Of a stretch of DNA of 64,000 nucleotides, positions 3 through 25,320 are shown in pieces. Position 1 is the first letter of the stretch. Each line of letters starts with the position of its first letter. A program made the translations under genes and the position numbers. The notes beneath the pieces were generated by a model. The model was given only the letters and a program-made list of their open reading frames with translations, did no database searches and was not told the origin of the DNA. Origin of the DNA: Sedimentisphaeraceae bacterium JB056 (GTDB lineage: Bacteria > Planctomycetota > Phycisphaerae > Sedimentisphaerales > Sedimentisphaeraceae); assembly GCA_044440125.1 (NCBI GenBank), contig JBITAJ010000012.1:64001-128000 (forward strand), given 5' to 3'.

Positions 3-761
3 ACGCAGCAGGGAGTTAATGCATACGGCTTTGAGATGCTTACAAAATGGGCTAAGCATCGTTATAACTTGGATCTGAATATTGATGAGATACAGAATCA
101 ACAGCCGGCTGAGCTTCGTAAGCAGCTTATTGAAGCGGCAAAGCATACTTTTGATACTTTTGAGCAGGAAATCAATGACAAAGCTGATGAATGTGAGGCC
201 GCTGATTTTGCTCAATGGATGAAGGGACGTTATAATGTAAACTTTGCTCAAGAGCTTCTTGATGACATGGAGAAGGTTAAAGAGAACAGCGTAAAGCTTG
301 TTCGCAGCATTCTCAGAAATGAACTTTCAAGGCTTGAGAAATATGTGCTCTTGCAGATATATGACAGCACATGGAAAGATCATCTTTATGCTATGGACAG
401 GCTCAAAGAGAGTATTTTCCTACGTTCTTTTGCGGAAAAAGACCCTAAGGTTGAATACAAACGCGAAGGATACAAGATGTTCGAGGAGATGCTCAGCAGC
501 GTAGAGCAGAGAGTAACGGATACGATTTTCAAGGTTCGGCTTGCCGGCAATGAGAATACGAAGAACGTTTATTCTGGTCAGAACGCTTCGCATGATGAAG
601 CCAAGCAGTTTACTCAAACCGAAACGCAGAGGGCGGCAGCAATGGCCCCTCAGAAATCATCACCTGCAGCGCCTATAGTTAATAAGGAGCCAAAGGTAGG
701 CAGGAATGATCCATGTCCTTGCGGGAGTGGTAAAAAATACAAAAAATGCTGCGGCAGATAG
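3..761 (+). CDS. secA: Preprotein translocase SecA, C-terminal part (gene starts before the window)
   Basis: [33 protein letters not shown] wing/scaffold motif and C-terminal SEC-C Zn motif [21 protein letters not shown]; frame is open to the window edge. Confidence 0.97.
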
Positions 762-7619: not shown

Positions 7620-8417
7620 ATGTGTTCAAAGATTAAAGATACTAAAGATTGGATTTGTAAACATGTTGCAATAACTCTATTTATGGTAGTTGCATTTGTT
7701 GTGCTGCTGATTATGGGGTGGCTTTCTTATCCAAAAGATACGGAGTTTGATTTTGTTATAGCATGGGCTGCTCTTTTTGGCGGTATTGGTGGGATTGGTT
7801 CTTTGGTAACAAAAAATGAAGCTTTAAAACAAAATGACAATGCAAGGCTGAGCGATTCTCGTCAGGAGAGGCTGGCTTTGATTGCGTCTGATGTTCTCGA
7901 AAAGACTTATCTGGTACACCGAGCGATAACCAATATAACCTCTCCACTTTCATTTAAGGAAGAAGGCATTAAAACTACTGATGAAAAGGGTGAAGAGGTT
8001 AAAATAGAAAAAACTGACTTATCACAAGCAGAGATTTTTGCATATCGATTTCAAAAACATGATAAACTCTTTTCGAATTACTTTTCTTTAGACATCAAGG
8101 CAAAGGTGTATTTTAATAACGAGGTATATCAAAATATTCAAGATATGAAATCTGTTATTATTTTTATACGTTGTCATATAACCACATTATTAAGATATAC
8201 AAAAAAAGCGATTGAACAAAATCTTGCAGAGAATACCAAACAAATGCAACAGATAGAAGATGAAATTGAAGCTTTCTATAGTCCTGGTTTTGTGAATGAA
8301 TTGTTCGAAGAAAAGACTTCTTCTTCTTTTCAAAAAAATATAGAGACATTTAATACTGTATGTAAAAAACTGGAATTAGAGCTTAGTGGATATATAAGAG
8401 GAAAAGAAATTGACTAA
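7620..8417 (+). CDS. Hypothetical membrane-anchored protein (AT-rich islet)
   Basis: 265-aa ORF, two N-terminal hydrophobic segments, helical C-terminus. Confidence 0.7.
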   Translation: MCSKIKDTKDWICKHVAITLFMVVAFVVLLIMGWLSYPKDTEFDFVIAWAALFGGIGGIGSLVTKNEALKQNDNARLSDSRQERLALIASDVLEKTYLVHRAITNITSPLSFKEEGIKTTDEKGEEVKIEKTDLSQAEIFAYRFQKHDKLFSNYFSLDIKAKVYFNNEVYQNIQDMKSVIIFIRCHITTLLRYTKKAIEQNLAENTKQMQQIEDEIEAFYSPGFVNELFEEKTSSSFQKNIETFNTVCKKLELELSGYIRGKEID

Positions 8418-8453
8418 ACAAAAAACGGACAATTATTTAAAGGAGTTGGTGTT

Positions 8454-8670
8454 ATGATAAAGAATGATGCAGAAAAACAGATAATTTTGGAATGGGTAAA
8501 TTGGAAAAACTAATAATATAACAAGCCCGTCTTACAATAACAAAGATGAGTTTTATCGTCACCGTCTTCAAAAAGTAACGCCTCAGTTGCTTACATTTCG
8601 AGTTGGTCGTGGATGTGATAAATGGCAAGATGTTCAGGCATGGATAAATGATTATGAAAACAAAAATTAA
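8454..8670 (+). pseudogene. Small (~71 aa) gene broken by one extra A
   Basis: AAGGAG RBS then ATG 8454; stops after 19 codons, but removing one A from the A5 run at 8505-8509 gives an open frame to TAA 8670. Confidence 0.55.
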
Positions 8671-8801
8671 TGATAGTTAAAGACAGATGGATTTATCGAT
8701 TAAGGATTTTAACGGCTGAATTAAACATGTTAAATTAATGGAGAGTTGTAGAATATGAATGCATATAAGCAAATGAGACTGTATTTGAAGGGGATATATT
8801 A

Positions 8802-9455
8802 ATGGAAACATGGCAGATGATTTTAGTGTTAGTTGTTATTGCTATTGTTGGACTTGTTTCTGAATATCACCAGATTAGAAAGAAACGTAAGAAGCTCAAG
8901 TTGGTTCAGGAGTTTCTGGGAAATTTTGATGAATGGTGTAGTTCTCAATGGAATGACAAACAACTTTATAATTGGATGATTAGTAAGTCTGAAATAATTC
9001 AAAAACAATTAGGTTATTCAGGCCTTATTGATTTACGTCTTCCTTTTGAGAAAGGCTATCATAAAAATTATCCTATAATACTAAATTCTATTCCTGCAAT
9101 TCAACGAGGGATATCAGATTTATATCTGAATAAAGAAGAAGTTGCAACTTATTGTCAAATGGTGGATGGTTGCCTTAGGCGTTTTATTGGTTCAAGAGAA
9201 GAATATATTAGTTATAGATTAAAGAAATTATATAATCCATTAAGTTTGTTTTGTAATGGTATTGGCGTAATTCTTGCTATTCCTGTCTATATGTTAGAAG
9301 AGTGTAAAATAATCAGTCCGAATAGATCTGAATTAATTACTGAGAGTAATTTTTTTGGTTTTATAAACTTAATAGCTTCATTAGTAACAATAGTAAGTGG
9401 ATCTATGGTTATTGTATTGGGTTGGGATAAATTTGTTCAGATTATAGGTTTTTAG
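8802..9455 (+). CDS. Hypothetical membrane protein (AT-rich islet)
   Basis: 217-aa ORF with N- and C-terminal hydrophobic segments. Confidence 0.7.
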   Translation: METWQMILVLVVIAIVGLVSEYHQIRKKRKKLKLVQEFLGNFDEWCSSQWNDKQLYNWMISKSEIIQKQLGYSGLIDLRLPFEKGYHKNYPIILNSIPAIQRGISDLYLNKEEVATYCQMVDGCLRRFIGSREEYISYRLKKLYNPLSLFCNGIGVILAIPVYMLEECKIISPNRSELITESNFFGFINLIASLVTIVSGSMVIVLGWDKFVQIIGF

Positions 9456-9458
9456 ATC

Positions 9459-10208
9459 ATGAATATTAATACCAAAAACATGGATTTCTATCAAATACTT
9501 GAGTTGCATCCATACATGGATATAAAAGAACAATTTGAGGAAATAAAAGATGTTATTAATCTTTTACATGACAAACGTAAAGAGCTATATGGGAAAATAG
9601 AATCGATAAAAGTGTGCAAAAGTAGTTGTGAAGAAGCTAACTTAAATGGCATACAATATAAATCTGCTTACAAAGATATTGCTTGTAGTATGGCTGCTGT
9701 GGGTTTATTAGCACCATTTTTTGAGAGTTTATTTTCTCGTTCATTTGAATACATGCGTGATCAAGATGCTAATAGTCAGACAAGTAAACACAATAGATGG
9801 ATTTGCGCTAAGGAAAACAGTTGGGACTGTCATTATTATTTTGGAAAAAGCAATCATCCACAAAAGAATATTACAAAAGGCATAATACAGTTAGTAGAAG
9901 CAACTAACTTAAAAGATAGATTCCCTAATAATTTAGAAAGTATATTGTCCGCTCTTTTTGCTTATCGTAACAAAATGTTTGATGGGGGATATGAATGGGA
10001 GTTAAAGGATAGAGAAAAATTTTGGAAGCGTGTTGAAGAAAAATGGAATGTTGATAAACGTAAATGGTTTGAAAATGCAACTCAAGGTGATTGTATATGG
10101 ATGATATACATGTCTGATGAATTTATAAATGAGTGTCTTGAATGTATTAAGAAATGTATAACAGAGTTTTCGAGTATCTTTGATGAATTTAAGGGTAACA
10201 GAATTTAA
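9459..10208 (+). CDS. Hypothetical protein (AT-rich islet)
   Basis: 249-aa ORF starting 3 nt after the previous stop. Confidence 0.7.
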   Translation: MNINTKNMDFYQILELHPYMDIKEQFEEIKDVINLLHDKRKELYGKIESIKVCKSSCEEANLNGIQYKSAYKDIACSMAAVGLLAPFFESLFSRSFEYMRDQDANSQTSKHNRWICAKENSWDCHYYFGKSNHPQKNITKGIIQLVEATNLKDRFPNNLESILSALFAYRNKMFDGGYEWELKDREKFWKRVEEKWNVDKRKWFENATQGDCIWMIYMSDEFINECLECIKKCITEFSSIFDEFKGNRI

Positions 10209-11977: not shown

Positions 11978-12037
11978 TGCCTTAAAGGCGAATCGGAAAT
12001 GTTCCGGTTCGCCTCCGGCTTTAGGTGGGGCTTAAAA

Positions 12038-13048
12038 ATGCAGATGGAAAAGGAAATAGTTGATATTTCAATTGTGATACCTCTATTAAACGAGGAGGAT
12101 AATCTCCATCAACTGCATCAGGAAATAACAGATACGCTCAAAGGGCCGCTTTCTGATAAAAGCTACGAAATTATCTTTGTTGATGATGGCAGCAGAGATG
12201 CGAGTTTTGAGATATTGAAAAAGATTTCGGCGGGTGATTCTTGTGTAAGAGTTATCAGGTTCAGGCGTAACTTTGGCCAGACGGCCGCAATGAGCGCGGG
12301 TTTTGAACATGCCAGAGGCCATGTGATTATTCCGATGGATGCTGATTTGCAAAATGATCCTGCAGATATACCGATGCTGCTCAAAAGACTTGATGATGGG
12401 TTCGATATAGTCAGCGGATGGAGACGTAATAGACAAGACAAGGCAATTACAAGGAGACTTCCTTCGCAAATAGCCAACTATATTATCAGGCGTATCACTT
12501 TTGTTAACATCCATGATTTTGGGTGTACGCTCAAGGCCTATCGGCGAGAGGTGCTTCAGGAGACCAAGCTTTACGGTGAGATGCATCGTTTTATACCGGC
12601 AGTAGCCACATGGAGCGGTGCCAGAGTTACAGAGCTTGAAGTTAACCACAGGGCAAGGGTTGCAGGCAAAGCCAAATATGGTCTTGCAAGAACTTACAAA
12701 GTGGTTCTTGATCTTATAACCGTGAAATTTCTTGGTTCATATTCAACAAAGCCGCTTTATGTTTTTGGAAAAATGGGCTTCTTTTCGGCTATTCTGTCAT
12801 TTCTTCTTTTTATTGTCGTAGTCTATCAGAAAATTGCCGCAGATTTTTCAATGAACAGAAATCCGCTACTTGTTCTTGCGGCAATGATGTTTACAGCCTC
12901 AATACAATTCATTATGATGGGATTGCTTGCCGAATTGCTGGTAAGAACTTACCATGAATCACAGAACCGTCCGACTTATGTGATAAAAGAGATAATTGAG
13001 GGGACAAACACCGATGAGGATACTGCTTCCGATAAAACAGGTGCCTGA
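12038..13048 (+). CDS. Glycosyltransferase family 2 (ArnC/polyprenol-phosphate glycosyltransferase-like)
   Basis: VDDGSRD, RNFGQTAA, DADLQNDP, two C-terminal TM helices. Confidence 0.92.
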   Translation: MQMEKEIVDISIVIPLLNEEDNLHQLHQEITDTLKGPLSDKSYEIIFVDDGSRDASFEILKKISAGDSCVRVIRFRRNFGQTAAMSAGFEHARGHVIIPMDADLQNDPADIPMLLKRLDDGFDIVSGWRRNRQDKAITRRLPSQIANYIIRRITFVNIHDFGCTLKAYRREVLQETKLYGEMHRFIPAVATWSGARVTELEVNHRARVAGKAKYGLARTYKVVLDLITVKFLGSYSTKPLYVFGKMGFFSAILSFLLFIVVVYQKIAADFSMNRNPLLVLAAMMFTASIQFIMMGLLAELLVRTYHESQNRPTYVIKEIIEGTNTDEDTASDKTGA

Positions 13049-13808
13049 GGTTCGTAATGTACGAATGGATGAGAAGACCGGAACGGTAATCCGTGAAGGT
13101 GTTGAAGCGATAATCAATCCCCTTGATCTTTACGCAATTGAGCTTGCCATACGTTTGAAGGAAGATTACGGAGCCCAAATCACAGCGATTACCATGGGCC
13201 CTGCCAAGGCAGATATTGCTTTGCGTGAGGCGGTTGCGATGGGGGTTGATAATGCGGTTTTGATAAGTGACAAGGCTTTTGCCGGTTCTGATACGTGGGC
13301 AACGAGTTTCATTCTCTCTGAATCAATCAAACAGCTTGGCGAATTTGACCTTATAATATGCGGTGAACGCGCGGTTGATGGTGATACGGGGCAGGTTGGT
13401 CCGGGGATCTCGGCATTTCTCGACTTGCCTGTTGCTACATATGTTAGCGAATTGGAAAGCATAGAAGACGGCAAGGCGTATCTTTCAAGAATGCTTGAGG
13501 GCGGTTACGAGAAGCTGGAGCTTAAATTGCCCGCGGTCTTGACTGTCGTAAAAGAAGTTTCCAATCCCAGGCTTCCCACGTTACGAGGCAAAAAGAAAAG
13601 CCGGCTGATGGATGTTCCCCTTTTGAGCCAGAAAGAGCTCAATTTAATCCCGGAATCAATCGGCCTGAAGGGTTCACCAACAAAAGTAGTGAAAATAACC
13701 AAGCCCAAAGTTGCCAGAGAATGCCAACTATACAAAATTATCGATGAACAGTCGGCTCATGCGGCGGCAGATGCGTTCTGTGAGTTTGTAAAGGAGGCTG
13801 GGTGCTGA
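13014..13808 (+). CDS. etfB: Electron transfer flavoprotein beta subunit
   Basis: IKQVP, NPLDLYAIELA, AGSDTWATS, GERAVDGDTGQVGP. Confidence 0.95.
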   Translation: MRILLPIKQVPEVRNVRMDEKTGTVIREGVEAIINPLDLYAIELAIRLKEDYGAQITAITMGPAKADIALREAVAMGVDNAVLISDKAFAGSDTWATSFILSESIKQLGEFDLIICGERAVDGDTGQVGPGISAFLDLPVATYVSELESIEDGKAYLSRMLEGGYEKLELKLPAVLTVVKEVSNPRLPTLRGKKKSRLMDVPLLSQKELNLIPESIGLKGSPTKVVKITKPKVARECQLYKIIDEQSAHAAADAFCEFVKEAGC

Positions 13809-14821
13809 TCAAAACTGCAAACGGAAATAGCGGCGGGATATGGATACTCGCCGAGCAGAGCGGCGGGGTGATTGAGCCGGTAAGCTATGAGCTTCTTACC
13901 AGAGCAATACTGCTTGCCGAGAAGAACAATGCTGAAATATACGCGATGGTTTTGGACCGCAAGCTGGAAGATTCGGAACTGAATAAGCTTATAAGCCGCG
14001 GCGCGGATATCGTGGTTGCTACTGAAGATGAATTGCTTGATTATTTTATTGCCGAAGCCTTTTCGCAGGCGATGTCAGAGATTATTGAAGTTTTTAAGCC
14101 TGAGATACTGCTTGCCGGCGCTACCAGTACGGGCAGAACGGCGATGCCTCTTACTGCAGTGAAAGTAAATACCGGACTCACTGCTGATTGTACAATCCTT
14201 GATATCGACACCGAAAGCGGAAATTTGCTTCAAACACGTCCTGCCATTGGCGGTAATATACTTGCCACCATAAAGACTCCAGACCACCGACCTCAAATGG
14301 CAACAATCAGGCCTCACTCAACACCGCAGGCTCCAGAGCAGAGCGGACGAAGCGGACGCATAATAAGGTATGAACTCCAAAGCGAGCTGAAAAATGATGC
14401 CATAAAGAGAATCGGGTTTGAGCCTAATCGTGAAAAAGTTGCCGTTATTGATGCCGAGAGGGTCGTTGTTGCCGGTCGCGGGATAAAGAAGGCGGAGAAT
14501 ATGTCGCTTGTGTATGAACTGGCGGAAGCTCTGGGAGCGGCAGTCGGTGGAACAAGGGATGTTGTTGACAGGGGCTGGCTTAGCTATCCGCACCAGATTG
14601 GTCTCAGCGGACATACTATAAGCCCTAAGCTTTATGTTGGGCTTGGAGTTTCCGGTGCAATCCAGCATTTGGCAGGTATGCAGACGGCTGAGAAAATAAT
14701 CGTTATAAATAATGATCCGATGGCTGATATTTTCAAGGTTGCCGATGTTGGTATTGTGGGCGATTTGTTTAATGTCGTTCCTGAAATAATCAGGAAGCTT
14801 AAAGACGGGGGCGAGCTATGA
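13802..14821 (+). CDS. etfA: Electron transfer flavoprotein alpha subunit
   Basis: TGLTADCT, QTRPAIGGN, QIGLSG, GVSGAIQHLAGM. Confidence 0.95.
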   Translation: MLIKTANGNSGGIWILAEQSGGVIEPVSYELLTRAILLAEKNNAEIYAMVLDRKLEDSELNKLISRGADIVVATEDELLDYFIAEAFSQAMSEIIEVFKPEILLAGATSTGRTAMPLTAVKVNTGLTADCTILDIDTESGNLLQTRPAIGGNILATIKTPDHRPQMATIRPHSTPQAPEQSGRSGRIIRYELQSELKNDAIKRIGFEPNREKVAVIDAERVVVAGRGIKKAENMSLVYELAEALGAAVGGTRDVVDRGWLSYPHQIGLSGHTISPKLYVGLGVSGAIQHLAGMQTAEKIIVINNDPMADIFKVADVGIVGDLFNVVPEIIRKLKDGGEL

Positions 14822-16236
14822 CCGGCTACAATCATATTACGCCGCAGATAATCGAAGAGCTGGAAAAGATTGTCGGTTCTGAGTATGTGATTTATGGTGA
14901 TGTTGATAAGCTCGAGCCGTATTCGCATGATGAAGTGCCCGGCGCCGAATACAGGCATATGCCTGAGGTGGTTGTCAGGCCGAGAACTGCTCAGGAAATT
15001 TCAGCGATTATGAAGCTTGCCAATGCTGAGATGATTCCGGTAACGCCTCGCGGCGCAGGTTCGGGGCTTAGCGGTGGTGCGGTTCCGATTTATGGCGGAA
15101 TTGTTCTTTTGTGCGACAGGATGAATGAGATACTCGAGTTTGACGCAGAAAATATGATGATTACAGTAGAGCCGGGTATCATATCAAATGAGATTAACGA
15201 ATACCTCAAGCCGCATGGTTTGTTCTATGCAGGGTATCCAATGAGTCTTGAAACTTGCTATATCGGCGGCAATGTGGCGGAGAATGCCGGCGGCGGTAAG
15301 GCGGTAAAGTATGGCGTGACAAATCGTTATGTGCTTGGTATGGAAGTGGTTATGCCAAACGGCGATATTGTTGAATTTGGCGGCAAGCTGATAAAGGATG
15401 TTACCGGCTATAATATGCAGCAGCTTATGACTGGCTCAGAGGGTACGCTTTGTGTATTTACGAAGATAATCCTCAAGCTCCTGCCTTTGCCGGCTCATCA
15501 GGTGGATCTTTTGTGTTTGTTCAAGGATTCCCAGACTGCGATAGAGTCTGTAAGCAAGGTGATGACCGGCGGAATTATACCAACTTCGGTTGAGTATATC
15601 GATAAGACGGCGTTTGTTGCCTCTTGCGAGTATTTGAATGAGACGCTTCCGTATAAGGATGCCGGTGCGATGCTGCTGATTACTATTGATGGTTTCAGTG
15701 AGCAGCAGGTTATAAGTGAGTATGAGGCGGTGGGCGAGAAGTGTCTTGAGCTTGGTGCGATAGAGGTTTATGTTGCTGATAATCCGACGACTACTGAGCG
15801 TGTGTGGAAGATTCGTCGCAATATTGGCGAGGCGTATAATATCATAAGCCGCAGACAGAGCGGGGAGGATATTGTTGTGCCGCCGTCGCAGATACCTCAG
15901 ATGGTGGCTAAGCTTGAGCAGCTTGCAGAGAAATATGGGCTTATGATTCCATGTTTTGGCCATGCCGGTGATGGTAATCTGCATGCAAGGCTGGTTTCTG
16001 ATCCTGCGTGGAGCGATGAATACTGGAAGGAGCTTTTGCCGAAAGTGCTTGAAGAGCTTTATTCGCTTACCGCGAAGCTTGGCGGTCGAATTTCAGGCGA
16101 GCATGGTATTGGAAGCAAACGCAAAAAGTATATGTCGAAAGTAGTCAGCGAAGAGTATCTAAATACTCTGCGGGCAATCAAAAAGGCCCTCGACCCCAAA
16201 GATATCCTGAATCCCGGCAAGATATTTGATGTGTAA
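14818..16236 (+). CDS. FAD-linked 2-hydroxyacid (lactate/glycolate) dehydrogenase, LctD/GlcD family
   Basis: PRGAGSGLSGG, GGNVAENAGG..AVKYG, GHAGDGNLH, SGEHGIG, LNPGK. Confidence 0.92.
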   Translation: MTGYNHITPQIIEELEKIVGSEYVIYGDVDKLEPYSHDEVPGAEYRHMPEVVVRPRTAQEISAIMKLANAEMIPVTPRGAGSGLSGGAVPIYGGIVLLCDRMNEILEFDAENMMITVEPGIISNEINEYLKPHGLFYAGYPMSLETCYIGGNVAENAGGGKAVKYGVTNRYVLGMEVVMPNGDIVEFGGKLIKDVTGYNMQQLMTGSEGTLCVFTKIILKLLPLPAHQVDLLCLFKDSQTAIESVSKVMTGGIIPTSVEYIDKTAFVASCEYLNETLPYKDAGAMLLITIDGFSEQQVISEYEAVGEKCLELGAIEVYVADNPTTTERVWKIRRNIGEAYNIISRRQSGEDIVVPPSQIPQMVAKLEQLAEKYGLMIPCFGHAGDGNLHARLVSDPAWSDEYWKELLPKVLEELYSLTAKLGGRISGEHGIGSKRKKYMSKVVSEEYLNTLRAIKKALDPKDILNPGKIFDV

Positions 16237-16333: not shown

Positions 16334-16594
16334 GTGAAAATGATATCTATAACGTCAAATGAATTGAAAACGAGGGGAGTCTCTGCTATAAAAGGGCTGC
16401 TTAAGGATAATCCCGAAGCCGCTATAACCGTACGTGGCAAGGCTGAATATGTCGTACTGAAGATGGACGATTTTATTCATTACAGAGAACTGGAGCTTGA
16501 ACAGGCACTTTATGAGACTCGCAAGGAAATCAATGAAGGTAAGTTTGCCAAGTCCAGCGTTGAAGAGCATTTAAAGGATATTGGTGATGTATGA
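16334..16594 (+). CDS. Type II TA antitoxin, Phd/YefM family
   Basis: ITSNELKTRGVS..AITVRGKAEYVVL pattern. Confidence 0.85.
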   Translation: MKMISITSNELKTRGVSAIKGLLKDNPEAAITVRGKAEYVVLKMDDFIHYRELELEQALYETRKEINEGKFAKSSVEEHLKDIGDV

Positions 16595-16859
16595 GATTAT
16601 TTATACTCACCGTTATGTAAAACTTGCCAAGAGATTTTTCAAAAAACATCCTGATCTGCTTGAGCGTTACAGAAAGACTCTTCTGCTTCTTGAGGCAGAC
16701 CCTTACCACAAATCACTCCGAATTCATAAGCTTACCGGTCGGCTTGAAGGGATTTTTTCGGTTTCTATCAATATGAAATATCGGATTACAATCGAATTTA
16801 TCATTGATGAAAAGACCATAATTCCTGTAAGTATTGGCTCTCACTCTGAAATTTATTGA
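16587..16859 (+). CDS. Type II TA toxin, RelE/YafQ-like mRNA interferase
   Basis: DPYHKSLRIHKLTGRLEG.FSVSINMKYRI..IGSHSEIY; overlaps the antitoxin stop. Confidence 0.88.
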   Translation: MYEIIYTHRYVKLAKRFFKKHPDLLERYRKTLLLLEADPYHKSLRIHKLTGRLEGIFSVSINMKYRITIEFIIDEKTIIPVSIGSHSEIY

Positions 16860-17100: not shown

Positions 17101-18585
17101 TCATTTTTTATTATGTCTAATTGACATAATAACTCCAGCAATAATAGATAGTAACATCACTCCCCAGCCACCAATTATTATAGAAGAAGGGGAATATCCT
17201 GAATACCAGCCAGAAAATTCATTAATAAATTTTGAACCAAATACAAAGATTAGAATTATTGGTATAAAATAAACGATAATAACCTTGGCTATTTTAAGTA
17301 AGTAAACTTTTTTTAATGAGATCGTATTGTTTAGAGTAAATTTTGTTAAAGTGAATTGTCCAAAAATTATACATTCTAGTATTACAATAGCTGCGATGCT
17401 GTAATAAGCAATCCAATGATCAATTATGTCTAACCAATAAAGACCACTGCCAGTGGTGAAAATTAAACTGCCGCCAAATCCTAATAAGCATATTATGCCT
17501 GCCAATATACTCTTTGATTTTGTCCTTGCAGATAAATCGTCACAGCCAGCGACAATTGCTTCAACTGCAGCAAAAACGCTGTCAATTCCTAATGAAACCA
17601 AAATGACGAAAAATATGATACCCCATAAAGGTGCAAATGGAAGATTTGATATTGCCATTGGGTAGGATACAAAAGCAAGAAAAATGCCATCCAGTTTAAG
17701 GTCAGAAATATTAACACCTGCAGAATGTGCTAAAAACCCCATTGTCGAAAAGACTGTAATGCCTGCAAGTAAACTAAAAAAGACATCAAAACAACAGATT
17801 GTAATTCCAGATTTAATGAGTGCAGAATCTTGTTTTCTTCTGCTTGCGTAAGCTATAACTTGTCCCATGCCTAAACTCATAGATAACATTACCTGAGATG
17901 CAGCAGCAGCCCAAACAGAAATATTGAACATTTTACCGCTTTGAGGTCTGAGAAAATAAGCTACGCCATTTTTAGAACCAGGCATTGTGAAGTTTTCGAA
18001 TATAAATACTATTAGTAAAATAGCCGGCAGTGGTACTGTAATTAATAAAATTTTTGACAATGTTTTTGTTTTTGATCTTGAAATCAAATAAACTCCGCCC
18101 CATACCAAAGCAAGTGCTAATACTGTAGCAAGATTTATTCCTCCTAACTGAAAAGGACCATCTGACATCTTTACAACTTTATCAAGGAAAAATGAAGCAG
18201 GGTCTTTACCCCATGCTTCTGAAAAACTATAAAAAATATATTCTATGCTCCAAGCCAATACAACAGAATAATAAAATAGTATAACTAATGAATTTATTAA
18301 TGCCCACCATCCAATCCAAGTCCATCGCTTATTAATATTTTGAAAAGCAGTTGCTATCGAATTACCCTTTTTACCCATTATTATTTCCAATAGCATAATT
18401 GGTAAGGCAATCAGAAGCATGCAAATAAGATATGGTATAAGAAATGTTCCTCCACCATTTTCATATGCCATATAAGGAAATCTCCAAAGATTACCTACGC
18501 CAACAGCTGCACCAACGCAAGCTAAAATAAAAAAGATTTCTTTAGGCCAAAACTCTCTAATTTTTTTCTTTTTTAATTCAGACAT
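17101..18585 (-). CDS. Sodium-dependent transporter, NSS/SLC6 (LeuT-like) family
   Basis: GAAVGVGNLWRFPYMAYENGGGTFLIPY TM1 signature, SLGMG, LAFVSYP, many TM helices. Confidence 0.95.
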   Translation of the reverse strand: MSELKKKKIREFWPKEIFFILACVGAAVGVGNLWRFPYMAYENGGGTFLIPYLICMLLIALPIMLLEIIMGKKGNSIATAFQNINKRWTWIGWWALINSLVILFYYSVVLAWSIEYIFYSFSEAWGKDPASFFLDKVVKMSDGPFQLGGINLATVLALALVWGGVYLISRSKTKTLSKILLITVPLPAILLIVFIFENFTMPGSKNGVAYFLRPQSGKMFNISVWAAAASQVMLSMSLGMGQVIAYASRRKQDSALIKSGITICCFDVFFSLLAGITVFSTMGFLAHSAGVNISDLKLDGIFLAFVSYPMAISNLPFAPLWGIIFFVILVSLGIDSVFAAVEAIVAGCDDLSARTKSKSILAGIICLLGFGGSLIFTTGSGLYWLDIIDHWIAYYSIAAIVILECIIFGQFTLTKFTLNNTISLKKVYLLKIAKVIIVYFIPIILIFVFGSKFINEFSGWYSGYSPSSIIIGGWGVMLLSIIAGVIMSIRHNKK

Positions 18586-18587
18586 CC

Positions 18588-18749
18588 TTAAAGCTCATTC
18601 CTAATTTCATAATCAGAGAGTTTTTCATTCTCGCAAATCGAACGTGCAGTGTGGCGATTTATAATTATACTTACTATTTTTTGCACATCATCTTCTGGTA
18701 TGTCTACAAGATCTACTAAAGATTCAACAAGTAATTGTTTATTGTTCAT
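18588..18749 (-). CDS. Small 53-aa protein (not in ORF track)
   Basis: MNNKQLLVESLVDLVDIPEDDVQKIVSIIINRHTARSICENEKLSDYEIRNEL; ATG overlaps the radical-SAM TGA (ATGA), and TAA lies 2 nt before the transporter ATG (TAAGGATG). Confidence 0.75.
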   Translation of the reverse strand: MNNKQLLVESLVDLVDIPEDDVQKIVSIIINRHTARSICENEKLSDYEIRNEL

Positions 18750-19879
18750 CTTTCATTGTCCTTAAACATAAGGTTAGTATTAAATGGTAATCTTGTTGTA
18801 TCTCGACTTAACAAGGTTACTATATTTAATTTTCTATCTTTACTATATTTACATAAATAAGTTGAAATTAAGTCTGTTGTTCTTCGTGATTTTACTTCAA
18901 TTGCAATATCTTTCATTTCAAATGCTTCTGTTTTCTCTCTTGGTTCATACATGAAAATTTGAGCAAAAGAGAAACTATATTTTTTGAGAAACTTGATATT
19001 TTCCTGATGGTCCATTTCTGTTTCAGAAGGAAACCCTGCCATAATATCAGTTGAAATATTTTTTACACCATACGATAATAGAGTATTATAAACGGTATAG
19101 AAATTTTCCAAAGAATATTCTCTTCTCATTTTTCTTAAAATCTTATTACTTGCTGATTGGATTGGAATGTGTATATTTCCAGTAATATTGTTATGGGAAA
19201 GTAAAGCTATATCATCAAATTTGCTTTCAAGGAGCCATTTGATACCGATTGGTCCTAACTTTATTTTCTGTGTTGGGTATTTCTGAAAGACATATTTTAG
19301 TAATTGCCATATATCTGTATCTTTATCTAAACCATATGCTCCAATATCTTGTCCTACAAACTTGATATATGCTAATGATGAAGATTTTTCTATATCTTTA
19401 CAAATATCACCGATATCTCTGCTTAGATGTCTTCCGCGTGCTAATTTTACAGAACAATAAGCACAATTTCCATAGCATCCTTCAGATATTGTTATATTCT
19501 GTATTGGATTTAGAGTGGATACTATTTCCAAAGGGGTTAGATGAAAATATTTCGAAATAAAATTTTGTATTTCACCTTTTTTGATGTAATGCAATTTATT
19601 GTTTTTGTGTTTTTTTCTCAGGAAACAACCCGATGCTATAATCAGATGAAAATTTTTATACTCGTAAATATCGTTAAGTAATTTTTCGAATTCATGTTCT
19701 TTTTGCATACTGAAGGTGCAACCTAATATTATAAATATATCAGCAATTTCAGAATCAACCTCGCTTAAGCCTAAAACATTGAGTTCATCTTTAATGACAT
19801 TGGCATCATATTCTAAGCACCCACATCCGTTGTGTATTATACAGTAGCCAGATATATTGTTTTTTGATTTACAGCTCAT
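18746..19879 (-). CDS. Radical-SAM methylthiotransferase-like protein (MiaB/MtaB/RimO family) lacking a TRAM domain
   Basis: UPF0004-type cysteines C19/C54/C85, CxxxCxxC at C135/139/142, GQDIGAYG, HIPIQSAS, TDIMAGFPSET; only 377 aa. Confidence 0.88.
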   Translation of the reverse strand: MSCKSKNNISGYCIIHNGCGCLEYDANVIKDELNVLGLSEVDSEIADIFIILGCTFSMQKEHEFEKLLNDIYEYKNFHLIIASGCFLRKKHKNNKLHYIKKGEIQNFISKYFHLTPLEIVSTLNPIQNITISEGCYGNCAYCSVKLARGRHLSRDIGDICKDIEKSSSLAYIKFVGQDIGAYGLDKDTDIWQLLKYVFQKYPTQKIKLGPIGIKWLLESKFDDIALLSHNNITGNIHIPIQSASNKILRKMRREYSLENFYTVYNTLLSYGVKNISTDIMAGFPSETEMDHQENIKFLKKYSFSFAQIFMYEPREKTEAFEMKDIAIEVKSRRTTDLISTYLCKYSKDRKLNIVTLLSRDTTRLPFNTNLMFKDNER

Positions 19880-21437
19880 TTTTAAGCTCGCTAATAAATT
19901 GCCCTTTTCCTGCGCATCGCAAAAGATGCAAAGGATGGTATTTATTTTTTGTTTCTTTTGCTAGGCATCCAATATTGCCGATATAGTTTGATAAGTTATG
20001 TATTGCGCTTTTACCTTTCATATCATTTGGTTCTTCATTGTTACTATGATTGGCTAAAACAACCTTTTCCTGAAGTTTTATTGCAAATTTTTTTAAATTT
20101 TCATGATAGCATTCTGCAATATCTTCTACCGCTTTTAATGGAATATGAAATCCATTTTCGAAATGATTTTTGTGTTGTTTTTTCTCGTGTAATTCTTTGT
20201 TAATCGGGTAGTAAGCGATTCTGTTGGTTAAATCCAATCCTCCACCCCAAATGCGTATATTCTGGTTTTGAAACATCACCGCACAATCTATTGTAGGTTT
20301 TATTTTGCCTGGTTCTATTAACATTTTGATCAATGCTTTTTTAAGTGTTGCCAATGCATCGCAATAAGTTAGCTTGTTATTTTGCTTATAATCGATATTT
20401 CTTATTTCAGGTAACCCTATGTGTTTAAGGATGCCGTTAAAGTAATTTCTTTCTGACAATATGATTTCTAGAAAATCATCTAATGCAATCACTGCGATTG
20501 GCATTGACATCGCCAAATGTATCAACGATAATTCTTTTAATCTGTCAATTGTTCTATTGTTTGTTGCTACAATATCATGATAACATTCTGGGATGATCAT
20601 AATTCGAGATGCTATTGTTTCATTTTCATGGTTTCGTATTACTGAGTCATGTAAAGCAAGATGAACTTGCATATATGGGGAAAACCATTCAGATAAAGTC
20701 ATTTGTACATTTATAAATAAAGCTTCCTTGCAATTTTTTAAATCTGTAAGCATGTTATTTACAGTTGTGTAATGAATATCTTCTATTTCCTTTGGAGGTA
20801 TGTTTTCGCCAATAATTTGAGAAATATCATCTTTTAAGGTTTTTAGCTTTCCTTCAATTTCCTCTTTATCTTGAAAGTAATCTTCAAATTTTTTTTCAGG
20901 TTGATTATTTGTAGTCTTTTTTATTATTTCTAAAAATACTTCTTTTATATTGTTTAATGCTTTGGTGTCAATTTGTATATCGTCCGGATTTGCAATTTGA
21001 ACTGATTGAATATTTTTAAGAGGGCTGTTTATTTTTCTTCTATCAACACCAAAGTACATAATCATTGCATTCTTATTTTGGCTAGTCAATCGACCTAGTT
21101 CATAGAATAACCAAGGGGACGAAATGTTTTCATGTGTTACAAATAATAATCCTAGAGAACTATCATTTAGTTCTTTTTCTAAGTTTACAACCCAATTGGA
21201 ACCCATCTCAATGTCAACAAAAGACACAAAAGTATTTTTATTCTTAAAGGTTTCACTAAAGAAAGTATTGAATTTTTCTGTAAGTTGTTTGCTATATTGA
21301 CCTGACCAACTTAAAAAACATTTTCCTTCAGATTGATTAGTAGCTTTGCACATCTCTAACATTACCTCAATAATTCGTTTTAGCATAAATTTATGAGAAT
21401 TACAACGTAAAAAACTGCAAATTTCATTGTAAGCCAT
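19869..21437 (-). CDS. TIR-domain protein with a large uncharacterised C-terminal region
   Basis: CFLSWSG...DIEMGSNW...LLFVTHENISSPWLFYELG (putative catalytic Glu113); true start may be an internal Met (codon 18, 26 or 29). Confidence 0.85.
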   Translation of the reverse strand: MAYNEICSFLRCNSHKFMLKRIIEVMLEMCKATNQSEGKCFLSWSGQYSKQLTEKFNTFFSETFKNKNTFVSFVDIEMGSNWVVNLEKELNDSSLGLLFVTHENISSPWLFYELGRLTSQNKNAMIMYFGVDRRKINSPLKNIQSVQIANPDDIQIDTKALNNIKEVFLEIIKKTTNNQPEKKFEDYFQDKEEIEGKLKTLKDDISQIIGENIPPKEIEDIHYTTVNNMLTDLKNCKEALFINVQMTLSEWFSPYMQVHLALHDSVIRNHENETIASRIMIIPECYHDIVATNNRTIDRLKELSLIHLAMSMPIAVIALDDFLEIILSERNYFNGILKHIGLPEIRNIDYKQNNKLTYCDALATLKKALIKMLIEPGKIKPTIDCAVMFQNQNIRIWGGGLDLTNRIAYYPINKELHEKKQHKNHFENGFHIPLKAVEDIAECYHENLKKFAIKLQEKVVLANHSNNEEPNDMKGKSAIHNLSNYIGNIGCLAKETKNKYHPLHLLRCAGKGQFISELKNEL

Positions 21438-21621: not shown

Positions 21622-22302
21622 TTAACTGAGGTTTGGCATTCTTGAGAGGGTTTTGCCTGTTGGTTTGAGGTTGAAGTTTTCGCAGGTTGGCAGGGGTGAG
21701 TTTTCAAAGCTGTCGATGAATTTATAGCGTTTAAGTAGGGATAAGTGTTTGTATGTTTTGATGTTACGTTGCCTCATCTGCTCGAAATACACATCCATCA
21801 GCTTTGCTGAAGCCAAAGCATCAGCTCCGGCGGTGTGGGCATTTTCAAGCGTGATATTATGCTTCTGACAAGCGAGATCAAGGCTGCACCTATCGCCTAT
21901 ATCAAGCATCTTTCGCATGTACATAAGGCAAAAATGCGGTACTTCCCAGTCAACACCCGCCATAGCAAGCTCATGTCTGAGGAATTTGATATCGAAATAG
22001 ACATTATATGCCGCTACCATACAGCCCGAAAGTGAGTCTACAAAATCTCCGGCTATCTCTTCGAATACAGGAGCATCTTCAACGTCTGAGTTTCTGATGC
22101 CGTGAATATATGTTGCCCCAACGTTGCGGCAGGGGTTTACGAGCGTATCAAAAGCGATATAGGGTTCTTTGCCCGGTTCAACTTTTACAACAGATACCTC
22201 AACAACGCGATCGTTGCCAGGCATCATGCCTGTTGTCTCAAAGTCGATAACGGCTATCGGCAGTTCTTCTATGTTGTGGTTGTATACGCCTGATTTTGTC
22301 AT
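21622..22302 (-). CDS. DEDDh 3'-5' exonuclease (DnaQ/Pol III epsilon-like)
   Basis: VIDFETTG, IHGI, AYNVYFD, AHTAGADA. Confidence 0.9.
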   Translation of the reverse strand: MTKSGVYNHNIEELPIAVIDFETTGMMPGNDRVVEVSVVKVEPGKEPYIAFDTLVNPCRNVGATYIHGIRNSDVEDAPVFEEIAGDFVDSLSGCMVAAYNVYFDIKFLRHELAMAGVDWEVPHFCLMYMRKMLDIGDRCSLDLACQKHNITLENAHTAGADALASAKLMDVYFEQMRQRNIKTYKHLSLLKRYKFIDSFENSPLPTCENFNLKPTGKTLSRMPNLS

Positions 22303-22320
22303 TGGTTCTTTTTCGTGAGA

Positions 22321-23976
22321 TTAAAACTTGGCCGGCGGCATTTGCGTGCGATAATGATTTGTTATCGGAAGTCGCCTGTCGCGACCGAATGCCTTTGGCG
22401 TGATCTTTATACCCGGAGGCGATTGACGTCTCTTATATTCGTTGCAGTCGATGAGCCTTATTACCCTGTTGATTTCCGCGGCATCGTAGCCAAGCTCGTT
22501 TACAATCTCCTGCGCAGAGCAATCCATCTCCACATAATGGGTTACTATCGAGTCGAGCATATCGTAGTCTGGCAGTGAATCGGTGTCTTTCTGATCAGGT
22601 CGAAGCTCCGCGCTCGGTGGCCTTGTTATCGTGCTTACAGGGATAACCTCACGGCCTGCGTGTTCGTTTACGTATTCGCTGAGCTTGAAGACAAGCGTTT
22701 TAGGCACATCTTTTATGATCGCAAATCCGCCGGCGGTATCGCCATACAGAGTTGAGTAGCCGACCGCGGTTTCGCTTTTATTGCCGGTGGTAAGCACCAT
22801 GTAGCCGAACTGATTGCTGAGTGACATAAGCATTGTGCCGCGGATACGTGCCTGAAGGTTTTCGTAGGCGGTTTTCGAGTCGTCCCAGCCGTCAACCAAG
22901 CCCAATACATTGTGAAACTCGCCTAAAGTATCGGCAATTGGTATGGTGTGGAATTCGATTCCCAGATTCTGGGCCAGAAGCCCCGCGTCGCTTATGGTAT
23001 CGGAGCTGTTGAATTTCGACGGCATTGTGACGCCGATTACGTTTTCCTTGCCAAGAGCTTCTACGGCGATTGCCGCTACGAGAGCTGAATCAATACCGCC
23101 GCTGAGACCCATTATTATTTTCTTAAACCCACTTTTTCGCACATAGTCGCGGGTTCCCAGCACCAAAGCTCCATAAACTTCCTCAACAGTTTTTCTTGGC
23201 TGAGCCGCCTTGTCCTGACAAGGCTCTATCATTGCCTTGCCCGAATCATCGAGCGTTATGTTTGCAGAAATCATATCTTCGTCGAATACAGCGGCCTTGC
23301 TCAAAACGACGCCGGCAATGTTCGTAAACATGCTTCTGCCGTCAAAGACCAGCTCATCCTGACCGCCTACCATGTTGCAGTATGCTATAGGGGTATCAAA
23401 TCTGCCGGCGGCTTTTGCGATTATGCGTTTTCTTTCTTCGATTTTCCCTTTGTGGAATGGTGATGCAGAGAGGTTGAGCAGAAGGTGCTTGTCTTCTGTT
23501 GCCTCCACTATCGAGGCGATTTTTTCAGTTTGCCATATATCTTCGCATATCGTTACTGCGATTTTGACACCGTCTGTTACGAACGAAACCGGTTTGTTTC
23601 CCGGCACAAAATAACGCCTCTCATCGAACACGCCGTAGTTGGGCAGCAATTTTTTATGGTACACATCGACGATTTTGCCGTCAGTGATTATAGCTGCCGC
23701 ATTGTAGCATTCGTCACCAAGCGGCTGAGCAAACCCTACTATAAGGGTCTTTTTATTGCATCTGTCGGCAACTGCCTGAAGGCCGAGGGTGTTATGATCG
23801 AGGAAGTGCTTTTTAAGCAGTAAATCTTCCGGCGGATAGCCGCACAATGCGAGTTCTGGAAACACAACGACATCGGCGCCGTCAGCTATCGCTTTATCGT
23901 AATATTCAACGATTTTGCCGATATTATAGCCGAAATCGCCAACTATGGGGTTTATCTGTGCAAGTGATATCTTCAA
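22321..23976 (-). CDS. nadE: Glutamine-dependent NAD+ synthetase
   Basis: Nitrilase domain (FPEL, LPNYGVFDE, ICEDIW) plus GLSGGIDS, ENLQARIRG, TGNKSE, EYKRRQ. Confidence 0.97.
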   Translation of the reverse strand: MKISLAQINPIVGDFGYNIGKIVEYYDKAIADGADVVVFPELALCGYPPEDLLLKKHFLDHNTLGLQAVADRCNKKTLIVGFAQPLGDECYNAAAIITDGKIVDVYHKKLLPNYGVFDERRYFVPGNKPVSFVTDGVKIAVTICEDIWQTEKIASIVEATEDKHLLLNLSASPFHKGKIEERKRIIAKAAGRFDTPIAYCNMVGGQDELVFDGRSMFTNIAGVVLSKAAVFDEDMISANITLDDSGKAMIEPCQDKAAQPRKTVEEVYGALVLGTRDYVRKSGFKKIIMGLSGGIDSALVAAIAVEALGKENVIGVTMPSKFNSSDTISDAGLLAQNLGIEFHTIPIADTLGEFHNVLGLVDGWDDSKTAYENLQARIRGTMLMSLSNQFGYMVLTTGNKSETAVGYSTLYGDTAGGFAIIKDVPKTLVFKLSEYVNEHAGREVIPVSTITRPPSAELRPDQKDTDSLPDYDMLDSIVTHYVEMDCSAQEIVNELGYDAAEINRVIRLIDCNEYKRRQSPPGIKITPKAFGRDRRLPITNHYRTQMPPAKF

Positions 23977-24013
23977 TTTATCGCCTTGGTACTTATCAAA
24001 ATTTAATATATTA

Positions 24014-24802
24014 TTATGCTACATCTCTGAGTTTTTGTATGCTCTCTGAGTCTTCCTTTTTACTCCATCGTATGTATTCTGCGCCACAACTATCTAATGC
24101 ATTAATATATTCGTCTTTAATTTCTGTCTCGATATCATTAATGACAGCCAAGCCTATAATATTCTTTTCTGTTTGTTTTTCTCTTACCCTTTTTATATCT
24201 TCCCATGTAAACAAAAATTGAGGCAAATTCATTTTATTAATTGAATTGAATGATTTAATTACTATTTCTGTTTTTTTGTATGCGATTTGAAAATCAAAAG
24301 TAAATTCTAACCCAGTACTTCCCTTTGATATGAAATGTGGAGTGTAGATTATTTCATGATCATCAAGATAAGATTTAACATCTTCCCTAAATACAGATGA
24401 TACAGTATGTTTTGCTAGGCAGTAAAGGTCATTAATTTCTGAAATCGCAGATATTATATTCAATTTTTTTTGCGGAAAATTTTTTTCATTTGCTTCAGCA
24501 ACAAGCTCTTTATCCAAAAGCTTAATGTCATAATTTAATAAAATTTTATCTAAAATCTGTTTTCTTTTTTGCGACCTCATTATTTCCATGCCATAAAGCT
24601 CTAAATTTCGTAATGTATTTCCATCATCAGATAGGAAAATTTTATTCTTGTCTTTTTTTGCATAAATATCTAATGTGTCATTGAATGAACTCGTGAACGG
24701 AGTACTTATTTCAACCCATTCAGAGCTGTTACTTGTAGAAAGGACAGTATTTTCCTTTAAGAATGAATAATAATTATTCATTAATTCTTCTATCCAGTTC
24801 AT
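24014..24802 (-). CDS. DUF1828/DUF1829-type protein
   Basis: EISTPF...LSDDGNTL N-terminal domain and GSTGLEFTFDFQI C-terminal nuclease-like region; AT-rich. Confidence 0.75.
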   Translation of the reverse strand: MNWIEELMNNYYSFLKENTVLSTSNSSEWVEISTPFTSSFNDTLDIYAKKDKNKIFLSDDGNTLRNLELYGMEIMRSQKRKQILDKILLNYDIKLLDKELVAEANEKNFPQKKLNIISAISEINDLYCLAKHTVSSVFREDVKSYLDDHEIIYTPHFISKGSTGLEFTFDFQIAYKKTEIVIKSFNSINKMNLPQFLFTWEDIKRVREKQTEKNIIGLAVINDIETEIKDEYINALDSCGAEYIRWSKKEDSESIQKLRDVA

Positions 24803-25320
24803 TGTAACCTCATTTGTAAATGTAAGTCTATATTGGTACGAACATTAATTATATCAAAAAAACTTTTCAATACAGGTATTATACCATGCTGTCTACTAAT
24901 ATCTTTTATTCTGAAATTATCTTTATCTAATGGAATTGCCCAAACAAGTTGTTTATAACCATCAACAACATAGTGGATATGGCCAGGCTTTTTATCCAAA
25001 TATATGCCTGCATATGGTTTAAACTTTTCAGGAACAGATTCAAGAACAACTTCTGGATTTTTATGCCGTTGATGGTAGTCAATACGTAATAAACCGTGTT
25101 TTGTTATATCATCTAAATGGTGTAATGATATTTTAAGTGCCTTTTTTTCACTTTCTTTGATGTCTACAATAAATACTTGCTCTGAGTCATCGCTTGATAC
25201 AAGATCCAGTCGTAATCTTATTGGGCTTTCAAGTTTAATGATTTTGGTATCAATTATTTTACCTTTTTCAATTACATGTTTGTCCAGATTTATTAGATTT
25301 GTAGCTGTCTGTGCATCCAT
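24799..25320 (-). CDS. DUF6978-like hypothetical protein
   Basis: LLRIDYHQRHKNP...GHIHY motif; ATGA-coupled to the DUF1828-type gene. Confidence 0.6.
   Translation of the reverse strand: MDAQTATNLINLDKHVIEKGKIIDTKIIKLESPIRLRLDLVSSDDSEQVFIVDIKESEKKALKISLHHLDDITKHGLLRIDYHQRHKNPEVVLESVPEKFKPYAGIYLDKKPGHIHYVVDGYKQLVWAIPLDKDNFRIKDISRQHGIIPVLKSFFDIINVRTNIDLHLQMRLQ

Follow-up and report, generated by a model that had tools for sequence, protein, structure and literature searches.

A TRAM-less methylthiotransferase-like enzyme and its predicted small-protein partner in a rare four-gene cassette of a Planctomycetota bacterium

What may a methylthiotransferase-like enzyme act on after the loss of its TRAM domain? 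This question is raised by a gene of Sedimentisphaeraceae bacterium JB056 (Planctomycetota; assembly GCA_044440125.1), which lies in a stretch of 64,000 nucleotides (nt) of contig JBITAJ010000012.1 (positions 64,001 to 128,000 of the forward strand). This whole stretch is called the window here. The earlier note on this DNA, made from the letters alone, proposed that the gene product keeps both iron-sulfur (Fe-S) sites of its relatives and has lost TRAM, that it is not a housekeeping tRNA modifier, and that it has been repurposed for a small molecule, a peptide or the product of a nearby TIR protein. It was found that the enzyme gene belongs to a four-gene cassette, together with genes for the TIR protein, for a 53-amino-acid protein and for a transporter. 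The reading that I favor, and to which I would give roughly even credence, is that the enzyme represents a fifth clade of methylthiotransferases, which modifies its own small protein in the manner of RimO within a defense-like cassette.

Domain makeup and phylogeny of the enzyme

The enzyme gene has the following parts.

18746..19879, minus strand: gene 2 of the cassette, TRAM-less methylthiotransferase-like radical S-adenosylmethionine (SAM) enzyme, 377 amino acids (open reading frame (ORF) list, Pfam, NCBIfam, AlphaFold2 model, tree)
19604..19843, minus strand: UPF0004 (methylthiotransferase N-terminal) domain, amino acids 13-92, with C19, C54 and C85 for the auxiliary cluster (Pfam, conservation)
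18986..19495, minus strand: radical-SAM core, amino acids 129-298, with C135-x3-C139-x2-C142 (Pfam; cysteines invariant)
18749..18898, minus strand: family-specific helical tail, amino acids 328-377, with an F-N-T-N motif at 366-369 (DSSP on the model, conservation, predicted interface)

In the Pfam scan, Radical_SAM (PF04055) matches amino acids 129-298 at E 1e-13 (52.2 bits; cut-off 29.5) and UPF0004 (PF00919) matches amino acids 13-92 at E 3.2e-07 (30.7 bits; cut-off 27). In the 36-row family alignment, C54, C85, C135, C139 and C142 are invariant and C19 is at least 90% conserved. Thus, the claim that both Fe-S sites are kept is borne out by the conservation of all six cysteines. G183 and D185 of the GQDIGAYG stretch are also invariant in this alignment, and N369 of the C-terminal F-N-T-N signature is nearly so.

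Is the TRAM domain really absent? TRAM (PF01938) was not matched in the 377-amino-acid protein by the Pfam scan at E <= 0.1. This says little by itself, because many full-length e-MtaB relatives also lack the PF01938 annotation. The MiaB/RimO family profile TIGR00089 of NCBIfam, however, aligns amino acids 13-339 to its positions 3-357 of 429 and stops where TRAM begins, so that its TRAM section finds no counterpart in the protein; with 189.2 bits, the match is under the curated cut-off of 251. In the AlphaFold2 model, which was built on the family alignment (mean predicted local distance difference test (pLDDT) score 91.6), DSSP assigns no more than two short helices (353-357 and 372-375) and a strand of two residues beyond the last core helix (327-348), and neither a beta-barrel nor a TRAM fold is predicted at the C-terminus. 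The loss of TRAM is carried by the protein length, the profile end and the model together; with these the domain scan agrees, as the earlier note had supposed. A tail of about 50 residues with the conserved FNTN occupies the place of TRAM in the canonical enzymes.

To which methylthiotransferase is the enzyme related? The equivalog profiles of NCBIfam give 164.8 bits for MtaB (TIGR01579; cut-off 357.05), 162.8 bits for e-MtaB (TIGR01578; cut-off 314.7), 121.6 bits for MiaB (TIGR01574; cut-off 355.3) and 114.3 bits for RimO (TIGR01125; cut-off 356.95). The best solved fold matches of the model in Foldseek are MtaB (9a6d_A, E 5.1e-25), MiaB (7mjv_A, E 3.2e-23) and RimO (4jc0_A, E 3.8e-18). Normalized by query length, their template modeling (TM) scores are 0.76-0.79; normalized by target length, they are 0.66-0.68, and the lower values are as expected if the targets have one more domain. 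With the family profile, the MiaB structures 7mjz_A (E 1.5e-49) and 7mjv_A (E 2.6e-49) are matched along profile positions 4-337. The MtaB model 9a6d includes a small partner, YvfG, on which no paper was found in the full-text literature.

A word-seeded protein search returned 35 relatives of 310-385 amino acids at E 1e-97 to 2.6e-52. After the last of them (P0036) the E-value drops to 8e-33 (P0037), and the matches from there on are mostly archaeal e-MtaB proteins of 405-476 amino acids. A maximum-likelihood tree was made of 92 rows, namely 33 family members (three truncated rows, P0030, P0034 and P0036, were left out), 38 NCBIfam-labelled proteins and 21 further matches, every fourth one being used from P0037-P0120. 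All 33 family rows lie on one side of a branch with a stem length of 1.52 and a support of 100 in the Shimodaira-Hasegawa-like approximate likelihood ratio test (SH-aLRT). MiaB (13 rows), MtaB (11 rows) and RimO (9 rows) form a single clade each with a support of 98-100, and e-MtaB forms one clade with the other matches. The family joins MtaB and e-MtaB at a weakly supported, unresolved node (SH-aLRT 81) and is nested in neither, which settles in favor of a separate clade a matter that the earlier note had left to phylogeny. All methylthiotransferases are described as tripartite and are divided into four clades in passages of PMC2952846. To judge from these alignments and the tree, the enzyme family is a fifth, TRAM-less clade of the MiaB/RimO methylthiotransferases, apart from MiaB, MtaB, e-MtaB and RimO. 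The enzyme was not filed as MiaB, MtaB or RimO, because the TRAM domain and the curated cut-off, two defining features, both fail. A fifth, uncharacterized methylthiotransferase clade of the older literature reportedly goes by the name MTL1; in the full-text literature, no paper was found under that name together with methylthiotransferase.

Some DPANN archaea have an e-MtaB that also ends shortly after the last core helix (L040, L016 and P0037, of 362, 342 and 341 amino acids). Two of the genes are located as follows.

L040:7617-8705, plus strand: DPANN TRAM-less e-MtaB, TIGR01578 398.6 bits, above cut-off
L016:5054-6082, plus strand: DPANN TRAM-less e-MtaB, TIGR01578 348.2 bits, above cut-off

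Unlike the cassette enzyme, the three proteins lie inside the e-MtaB clade and lack the FNTN tail, and no small protein, C-domain protein (see below) or transporter was found near the DPANN genes. This looks like an independent loss of TRAM in presumably real tRNA enzymes.

The cassette and the predicted partner of the enzyme

The other parts of the cassette are as follows.

18588..18749, minus strand: gene 3, 53-amino-acid protein, predicted partner or substrate; its start overlaps the gene 2 stop by 4 nt
18630..18644, minus strand: motif R36-S-I38-C39-E40 of the small protein (16-sequence alignment)
19869..21437, minus strand: gene 1, 522 amino acids, with a TIR domain at the N-terminus and the C-domain that is conserved in the cassette; its end overlaps gene 2 by 11 nt
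20904..21335, minus strand: TIR fold, about amino acids 35-178 of gene 1 (structural alignment)
19902..20786, minus strand: conserved C-domain of gene 1, amino acids 218-512 (tblastn, profile A5)
17101..18585, minus strand: gene 4, SNF-family sodium-coupled transporter (neurotransmitter:sodium symporter, NSS), 494 amino acids; it starts 2 nt past the gene 3 stop

Thus, the order in the window is gene 1, enzyme, small gene and transporter, with an 11-nt overlap, a 4-nt overlap and a 2-nt gap. Promoter-like sites (24 against 25.9 expected) and terminator-like sites (5 against 2.8 expected) are uninformative on an operon. Is this arrangement kept elsewhere? Six metagenome loci were picked by the motif FAQIFM[YF][ED][PS]R, which is present in 21 of the 36 family rows. 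The enzyme was found by tblastn in all six, and the small protein lies directly downstream of the enzyme gene in 6/6. The SNF transporter is present in five of them, following the small gene in L098, L099, L101 and L103 and with its start seen in L102, while the remaining locus ends 44 nt past the small gene. The C-domain partner is present in 4/6 loci, those with enough upstream sequence; in the remaining two, the upstream flank is 0 or 405 nt long. The identity to the window copies is 44-59% for the transporter and 36-45% for the enzyme. Equally long longest contigs suggest that four further pairs of small protein and enzyme (P0198/P0004, P0202/P0007, P0206/P0031 and P0209/P0032) also lie on the same contigs.

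The small-protein homologues comprise 14 database clusters, including that of the window, and two locus translations, 16 sequences in total. The proteins are about 50-65 amino acids long and consist of a helical N-terminal part of about 35 residues and the motif Q-x-x-R-x-I-[C/T]-[E/N], followed by a segment of variable length and sequence. R36 and I38 are invariant among the 16 and Q33 is at least 90% conserved; at position 39, 11 of them have Cys and 5 have Thr, and position 40 is E or N. With the switch from Cys to Thr, the enzymes of the subclade of P0011, P0012 and P0023 differ in only 4 columns, none of them at the predicted interface.

Does the small protein bind to the enzyme? A complex was predicted in which the enzyme (36-row alignment) is joined by the small protein (aligned in 7 rows), SAM and a pair of 4Fe-4S clusters. 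The interaction prediction score from aligned errors (ipSAE) was 0.85, 0.84 and 0.87 in three runs, while controls gave 0.01, 0.01 and 0.09. The ipSAE mark used is reached by 116/157 solved complexes and by 2/215 mismatched pairs, counts that hold only roughly here owing to the included ligands and the shallow alignment of this pair (7 partner rows). The runs share at least 77% of their contacts, and the pLDDT of the small protein is at least 79. In the predicted complex, residues 1-33 of the small protein, which form two N-terminal helices, pack on enzyme residues 328-373, FNTN included (328-343, 352-358 and 361-373). Its loop residues 35-45 contact the surroundings of the auxiliary-cluster cysteines (enzyme residues 15-26 and 54-63), and also residues 173, 207-210, 234-237 and 276 at the top of the radical-SAM barrel. 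Thus, the conserved loop is modeled to span the opening between both clusters. The model supports binding and looks as a substrate would, and it does not distinguish a substrate from a subunit. Among the substrates proposed by the earlier note, only the 53-amino-acid protein gains support, through its presence in 6/6 loci and an ipSAE of 0.85; the small molecule and the TIR product are still candidates.

Effector heads, transporter and genomic setting

What kind of cassette is it? The gene 1 protein matches the PADLOC TIR-TM model with 81.4 bits over amino acids 39-271, and the Pfam TIR_2 profile with 22 bits, below the cut-off of 28. The fold list for the whole 522-amino-acid AlphaFold2 model (pLDDT 80.9) is filled by TIR matches. 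By VIA-align, the TIR of SpbK (9phb_G) aligns with Z 13.1 and a root-mean-square deviation (rmsd) of 3.2 over 150 residues in the model range 35..206, and many further TIR chains match at Z 9-12. The TIR fold is clear in the model.

In contrast to the head, the C-terminal part is shared. With tblastn, gene 1 covers only amino acids 188-437 in L098, L099, L101 and L103, without the TIR part. The heads of the upstream proteins are TIR_2 in L103 (1.1e-30), SIR2_2 in L101 (6.8e-18) and hydrophobic N-termini in L098 and L099. A word-seeded search with the C-part of gene 1 returned the query itself only, and an exhaustive search of 1.84 billion representatives with profile A5, which locates the C-domain at amino acids 218-512, returned 77 C-domain proteins, 30 of them at E <= 1e-30. 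The Pfam heads among the 77 are TIR_2 (15), SIR2_2 (11), CHAT (1), Trypsin_2 (1) and Pyr_redox_2 (1), and 15/69 C-domain proteins have hydrophobic N-terminal segments. The ThsA, Dsr1, LmuA, SpbK, TIR-TM and chat models of PADLOC match only the N-terminal heads; the C-domain has no match to any PADLOC or Pfam model. Immune effectors show this pattern, in which a single conserved domain is combined with interchangeable heads of the NADase, membrane or protease kind. The TIR, SIR2, transmembrane and CHAT heads are homologous to effector models of PADLOC, and they are fused to one conserved C-domain, as in signal-controlled immune effectors with exchangeable TIR, SIR2 or transmembrane heads (Thoeris ThsA/ThsB, CBASS, Pycsar and SpbK). 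Different from these are the companions, namely the radical-SAM enzyme with its small protein, and the transporter. Neither a cyclase, a ThsA-type sensor nor a SAVED domain was found in the four cassette proteins by the Pfam and PADLOC scans. Effector modules of the defense type on a conserved scaffold are present (TIR_2 in 15, SIR2_2 in 11 and CHAT in 1 of the 77).

The fold of the C-domain is possibly like that of phospholipase D (PLD), to judge from the model. It matches SauUSI (7clg_B) at Z 8.1 with an rmsd of 4.2 over 145 residues, a weak PLD-like match, and the Atlas PLDc_2 clusters, also weakly, at TM scores of 0.26-0.32. The conserved His307 stands in I-H-x-x-M with no Lys at +2, so the HxK signature of PLD is absent. 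A SIS-domain fold was rejected, the Foldseek matches having TM scores of about 0.2 and an rmsd of 13-15.

The transporter is a regular SNF member (Pfam SNF, 326.7 bits). The best 60 of its 104 solved matches are SLC6-type carriers (glycine, dopamine, GABA, noradrenaline, serotonin and similar) with GlyT2 on top (E 5.8e-64), and no bacterial transporter is named among these 60. A second SNF gene is located elsewhere in the genome. Proteins of the NSS family import small solutes and are coupled to sodium. The role of the transporter is the least understood step of the mechanism proposed below.

Is the cassette native to its genome? The GC content is 0.30-0.31 over 18001-21000 and 0.42-0.49 in the flanks (12001-16000 and 22001-24000). 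Another stretch of the window, 8001-10000, is as low as the cassette island (0.30). In 40 genomes of the same family or order, the family profile gave no family-level match: while the gene of the window scores 468.9 bits, the highest non-self score is 184.8 bits, and MtaB is encoded at each of the five top-scoring non-self places (L087-L091). One of these MtaB genes (L087:1408-2550 in G016:C9, minus strand) has an open frame of only 380 amino acids, aligns to TIGR01579 positions 1-368 of 416 with 371.7 bits, and may be truncated or frameshifted. Among 401 genomes sampled across the phylum, the genome itself was the only match at E <= 1e-58. A family-level match was absent from the viral contigs of IMG/VR (6 loci returned, the best at 32% identity over 191 amino acids) and from plasmids, where the identity was 26-30% in all 5 matching records: the matched gene is annotated miaB in three, no feature is annotated under the match in the fourth, and the fifth is an unannotated record. 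The C-domain of gene 1 had no match in plasmids. A scan of a genome collection with the family alignment gave canonical methylthiotransferases only among the best 80 of 589 confirmed stretches, the best at 37% identity over 210 amino acids; members beyond these 80 may be missed. The cassette is a rare island that was acquired horizontally. MiaB (445 bits), RimO (497 bits) and MtaB (384 bits), each above the NCBIfam cut-off, are all encoded by the genome itself.

These results uphold the earlier claim, on profile scores, base composition and distribution, that the enzyme is no housekeeping tRNA modifier: the gene lies in a 30% GC island, its distribution is sporadic, and MiaB, RimO and MtaB are present. 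A housekeeping role on tRNA was rejected on the low equivalog scores, the separate clade, the own MiaB and MtaB, the sporadic distribution and the fixed linkage in the cassette.

Restriction-modification genes adjoin the 2/2 cassettes that have long upstream flanks (L103 and L099), although the loci are too few for statistics. In L103:4683-7216 (minus strand), a BsuBI/PstI-type restriction endonuclease and an Eco57I-type methylase flank the cassette, and in L099:8472-11545 (plus strand), a 1024-amino-acid protein with a D12-class adenine methyltransferase domain does so. Beside the cassette of the window, two overlapping ORFs of 86 and 92 amino acids at 16334-16859 (plus strand) are likely a type II toxin-antitoxin pair; the 92-amino-acid ORF matches the YafQ toxin family at E 7.9e-06, below the cut-off, and the 86-amino-acid ORF has no Pfam match. 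The cassette is read as defense-like because of the swapping of heads on a conserved C-domain, which fits the restriction-modification and toxin neighbors.

Other genes around the cassette were noted as well. Directly upstream on the same strand lies a DnaQ/RNase T-type exonuclease gene (21622-22302, minus strand, 226 amino acids, PF00929 at E 5e-20). A second low-GC patch (0.286) is located at 24001-25000, and the genes for a DUF1828/DUF1829 protein (262 amino acids) and a DUF6978 protein (173 amino acids), with overlapping stop and start, lie at 24014-25320 (minus strand). They are possibly another accessory two-gene module.

The substrate and the role of the cassette

How would such a cassette work? 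Under the favored reading, the small protein would be the dedicated substrate of the enzyme, which may add a methylthio (or thio) group to a C-H in or beside the R-x-I-[C/T]-[E/N] loop, as RimO does on Asp88 of S12. Together with the gene 1 C-domain, the modified small protein may then control the NAD-degrading or membrane-damaging head (TIR, SIR2 or transmembrane). The transporter may supply or sense a metabolite, and the cassette would be a defense or conflict system.

Among the known enzymes, I infer by analogy that the enzyme works most like RimO, which also has a UPF0004 and radical-SAM core, is matched by fold (4jc0_A) and acts on a protein, as is proposed here. In contrast, the TRAM of RimO binds S12, while the cassette enzyme lacks TRAM, stands in a separate clade and scores 114.3 bits against the cut-off of 356.95. 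RimO acts on ribosomal S12, whereas the putative substrate here is a dedicated 53-amino-acid protein. MtaB and e-MtaB (the CDKAL1 type) provide the best equivalog profiles, and MtaB (9a6d_A) provides the best fold match; the cassette enzyme is nevertheless below their cut-offs, lacks TRAM, is nested in neither clade and is located in a cassette with an effector-type protein and a transporter. MiaB has both cluster motifs in common with the enzyme, while its TRAM part is unmatched and its clade is separate.

Several points weigh against the favored reading. The ipSAE is the model's own confidence, with the rough calibration given above, and such a prediction may put a flexible loop into whatever cleft there is, so that a substrate and a subunit look alike in the model. 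Methylthiolation, by which a C-H of the substrate would receive -SCH3, is suggested by homology and the two-cluster architecture alone. Chemistry based on Cys39 is unlikely, since the residue is Thr in 5/16 of the small proteins. Neither a protease, an exporter nor a RiPP (peptide that is synthesized ribosomally and modified post-translationally) recognition element (RRE) was found in the cassettes. The PLD-like evidence for the C-domain is weak (Z 8.1, TM about 0.3). The enzyme, its small partner, the transporter and the C-domain all fall outside the PADLOC models, and an NSS transporter is not known to have a place in a defense system. The gene context comes from 6 relatives only, all chosen by one motif. 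In the full-text literature as far as it was accessible, no paper was found that links a methylthiotransferase to TIR, SIR2, anti-phage defense, a precursor peptide or a symporter.

May the small protein be a part of the enzyme rather than its substrate? It could be an obligate subunit or adaptor that replaces TRAM, while a small molecule or nucleotide is modified and the product is a signal sensed by the C-domain; the NAD-derived product of TIR or SIR2, or a solute imported by the NSS transporter, would be examples of such a substrate. I consider this unlikely. The transporter is the most conserved member of the cassette (44-59% against 36-45% for the enzyme), which points to a defined small-molecule ligand, NAD is what TIR and SIR2 domains are established to act on, and Cys39 is replaceable by Thr; the complex model, as said, fits a subunit equally. 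However, TIR swaps with SIR2 and membrane helices, and therefore a TIR-specific product cannot be the general substrate. Moreover, R36 and I38, the only invariant residues of the small protein, stand in the loop modeled at the active-site side, and the known family members act on macromolecules, according to passages of PMC10702137.

Alternatively, the small protein may be the precursor of a radical-SAM-modified peptide or of a peptide-derived cofactor, in the manner of PqqA/PqqE or MftA/MftC, which serves metabolism or signaling rather than immunity, with the transporter moving the product or precursor. The gene arrangement is suggestive: a small gene lies directly after the radical-SAM gene and is translationally coupled to it, its product has a helical 'leader' and a motif near the C-terminus, and leader-like docking is predicted. 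In PqqE/PqqA and SuiB/SuiA, too, a co-encoded peptide docks by its N-terminal helices and reaches the active site with a C-terminal segment, as is predicted here, and the pairing of that type was found in the adjacency in the window and 6/6 loci as well as in the predicted binding (ipSAE 0.85). Protease heads occur in 2/77 C-domain proteins, being trypsin-like in one and of the CHAT type in the other. However, PqqE and SuiB carry SPASM or RRE domains, whereas the cassette enzyme has the UPF0004 auxiliary-cluster domain and no RRE was detected by Pfam; SuiB matches the enzyme model only at E 1.6e-06 with a TM score of 0.40. In contrast to the invariant motif, the segment that follows it varies in length and sequence, the 4 full cassettes lack an RRE, a dedicated protease and an ABC exporter, and NSS proteins are established as importers. 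The swapping of TIR, SIR2 and membrane helices on one domain is typical of immune effectors and not of biosynthesis. Thus, this explanation seems decidedly improbable.

It is very improbable that the enzyme is still an RNA methylthiotransferase, directed at host or phage RNA (ms2t6A or similar) and either TRAM-independent or held to its RNA by the small protein as a clamp: MtaB and e-MtaB are the nearest profiles (164.8 and 162.8 bits), TRAM-less e-MtaB proteins of DPANN archaea pass the TIGR01578 cut-off (398.6 bits for L040 and 348.2 bits for L016), and TRAM does not distinguish i6A from t6A according to passages of PMC2952846, but every equivalog score lies at about half its cut-off or less, the clade is separate with a long stem, the genome already has MiaB and MtaB, the distribution is sporadic, and the linkage with a transporter and an effector-type protein is fixed.

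The reading of a small protein modified by its own methylthiotransferase allows a further step, which I regard as rather doubtful. The cassette may be a new immune or conflict system, in which a methylthio-marked tiny protein switches a sensor domain, perhaps PLD-like in its fold, that is fused to NADase, membrane or protease effectors, and a metabolite is tied in by the transporter. Alternatively, the switch could be the loss of the marked protein, when an invader disturbs the supply of SAM or Fe-S clusters. If the cassette is a defense system, it is an undescribed one; no paper on it was found in the full-text literature.

The cassette unites a radical-SAM enzyme, a micro-protein, an NSS transporter that is nearer in sequence to the SLC6 carriers of eukaryotes, and a TIR, SIR2 or transmembrane scaffold, which are not known to cooperate. 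The 377-amino-acid enzyme and its 53-amino-acid partner are a compact and testable pair for the recognition of proteins by two-cluster enzymes. If the favored reading is true, the small protein would be the third class of methylthiotransferase substrates, after A37 of tRNA and Asp88 of S12; under the more doubtful reading of a new immune system, the cassette would also be the first immune pathway built on radical-SAM modification of a protein.

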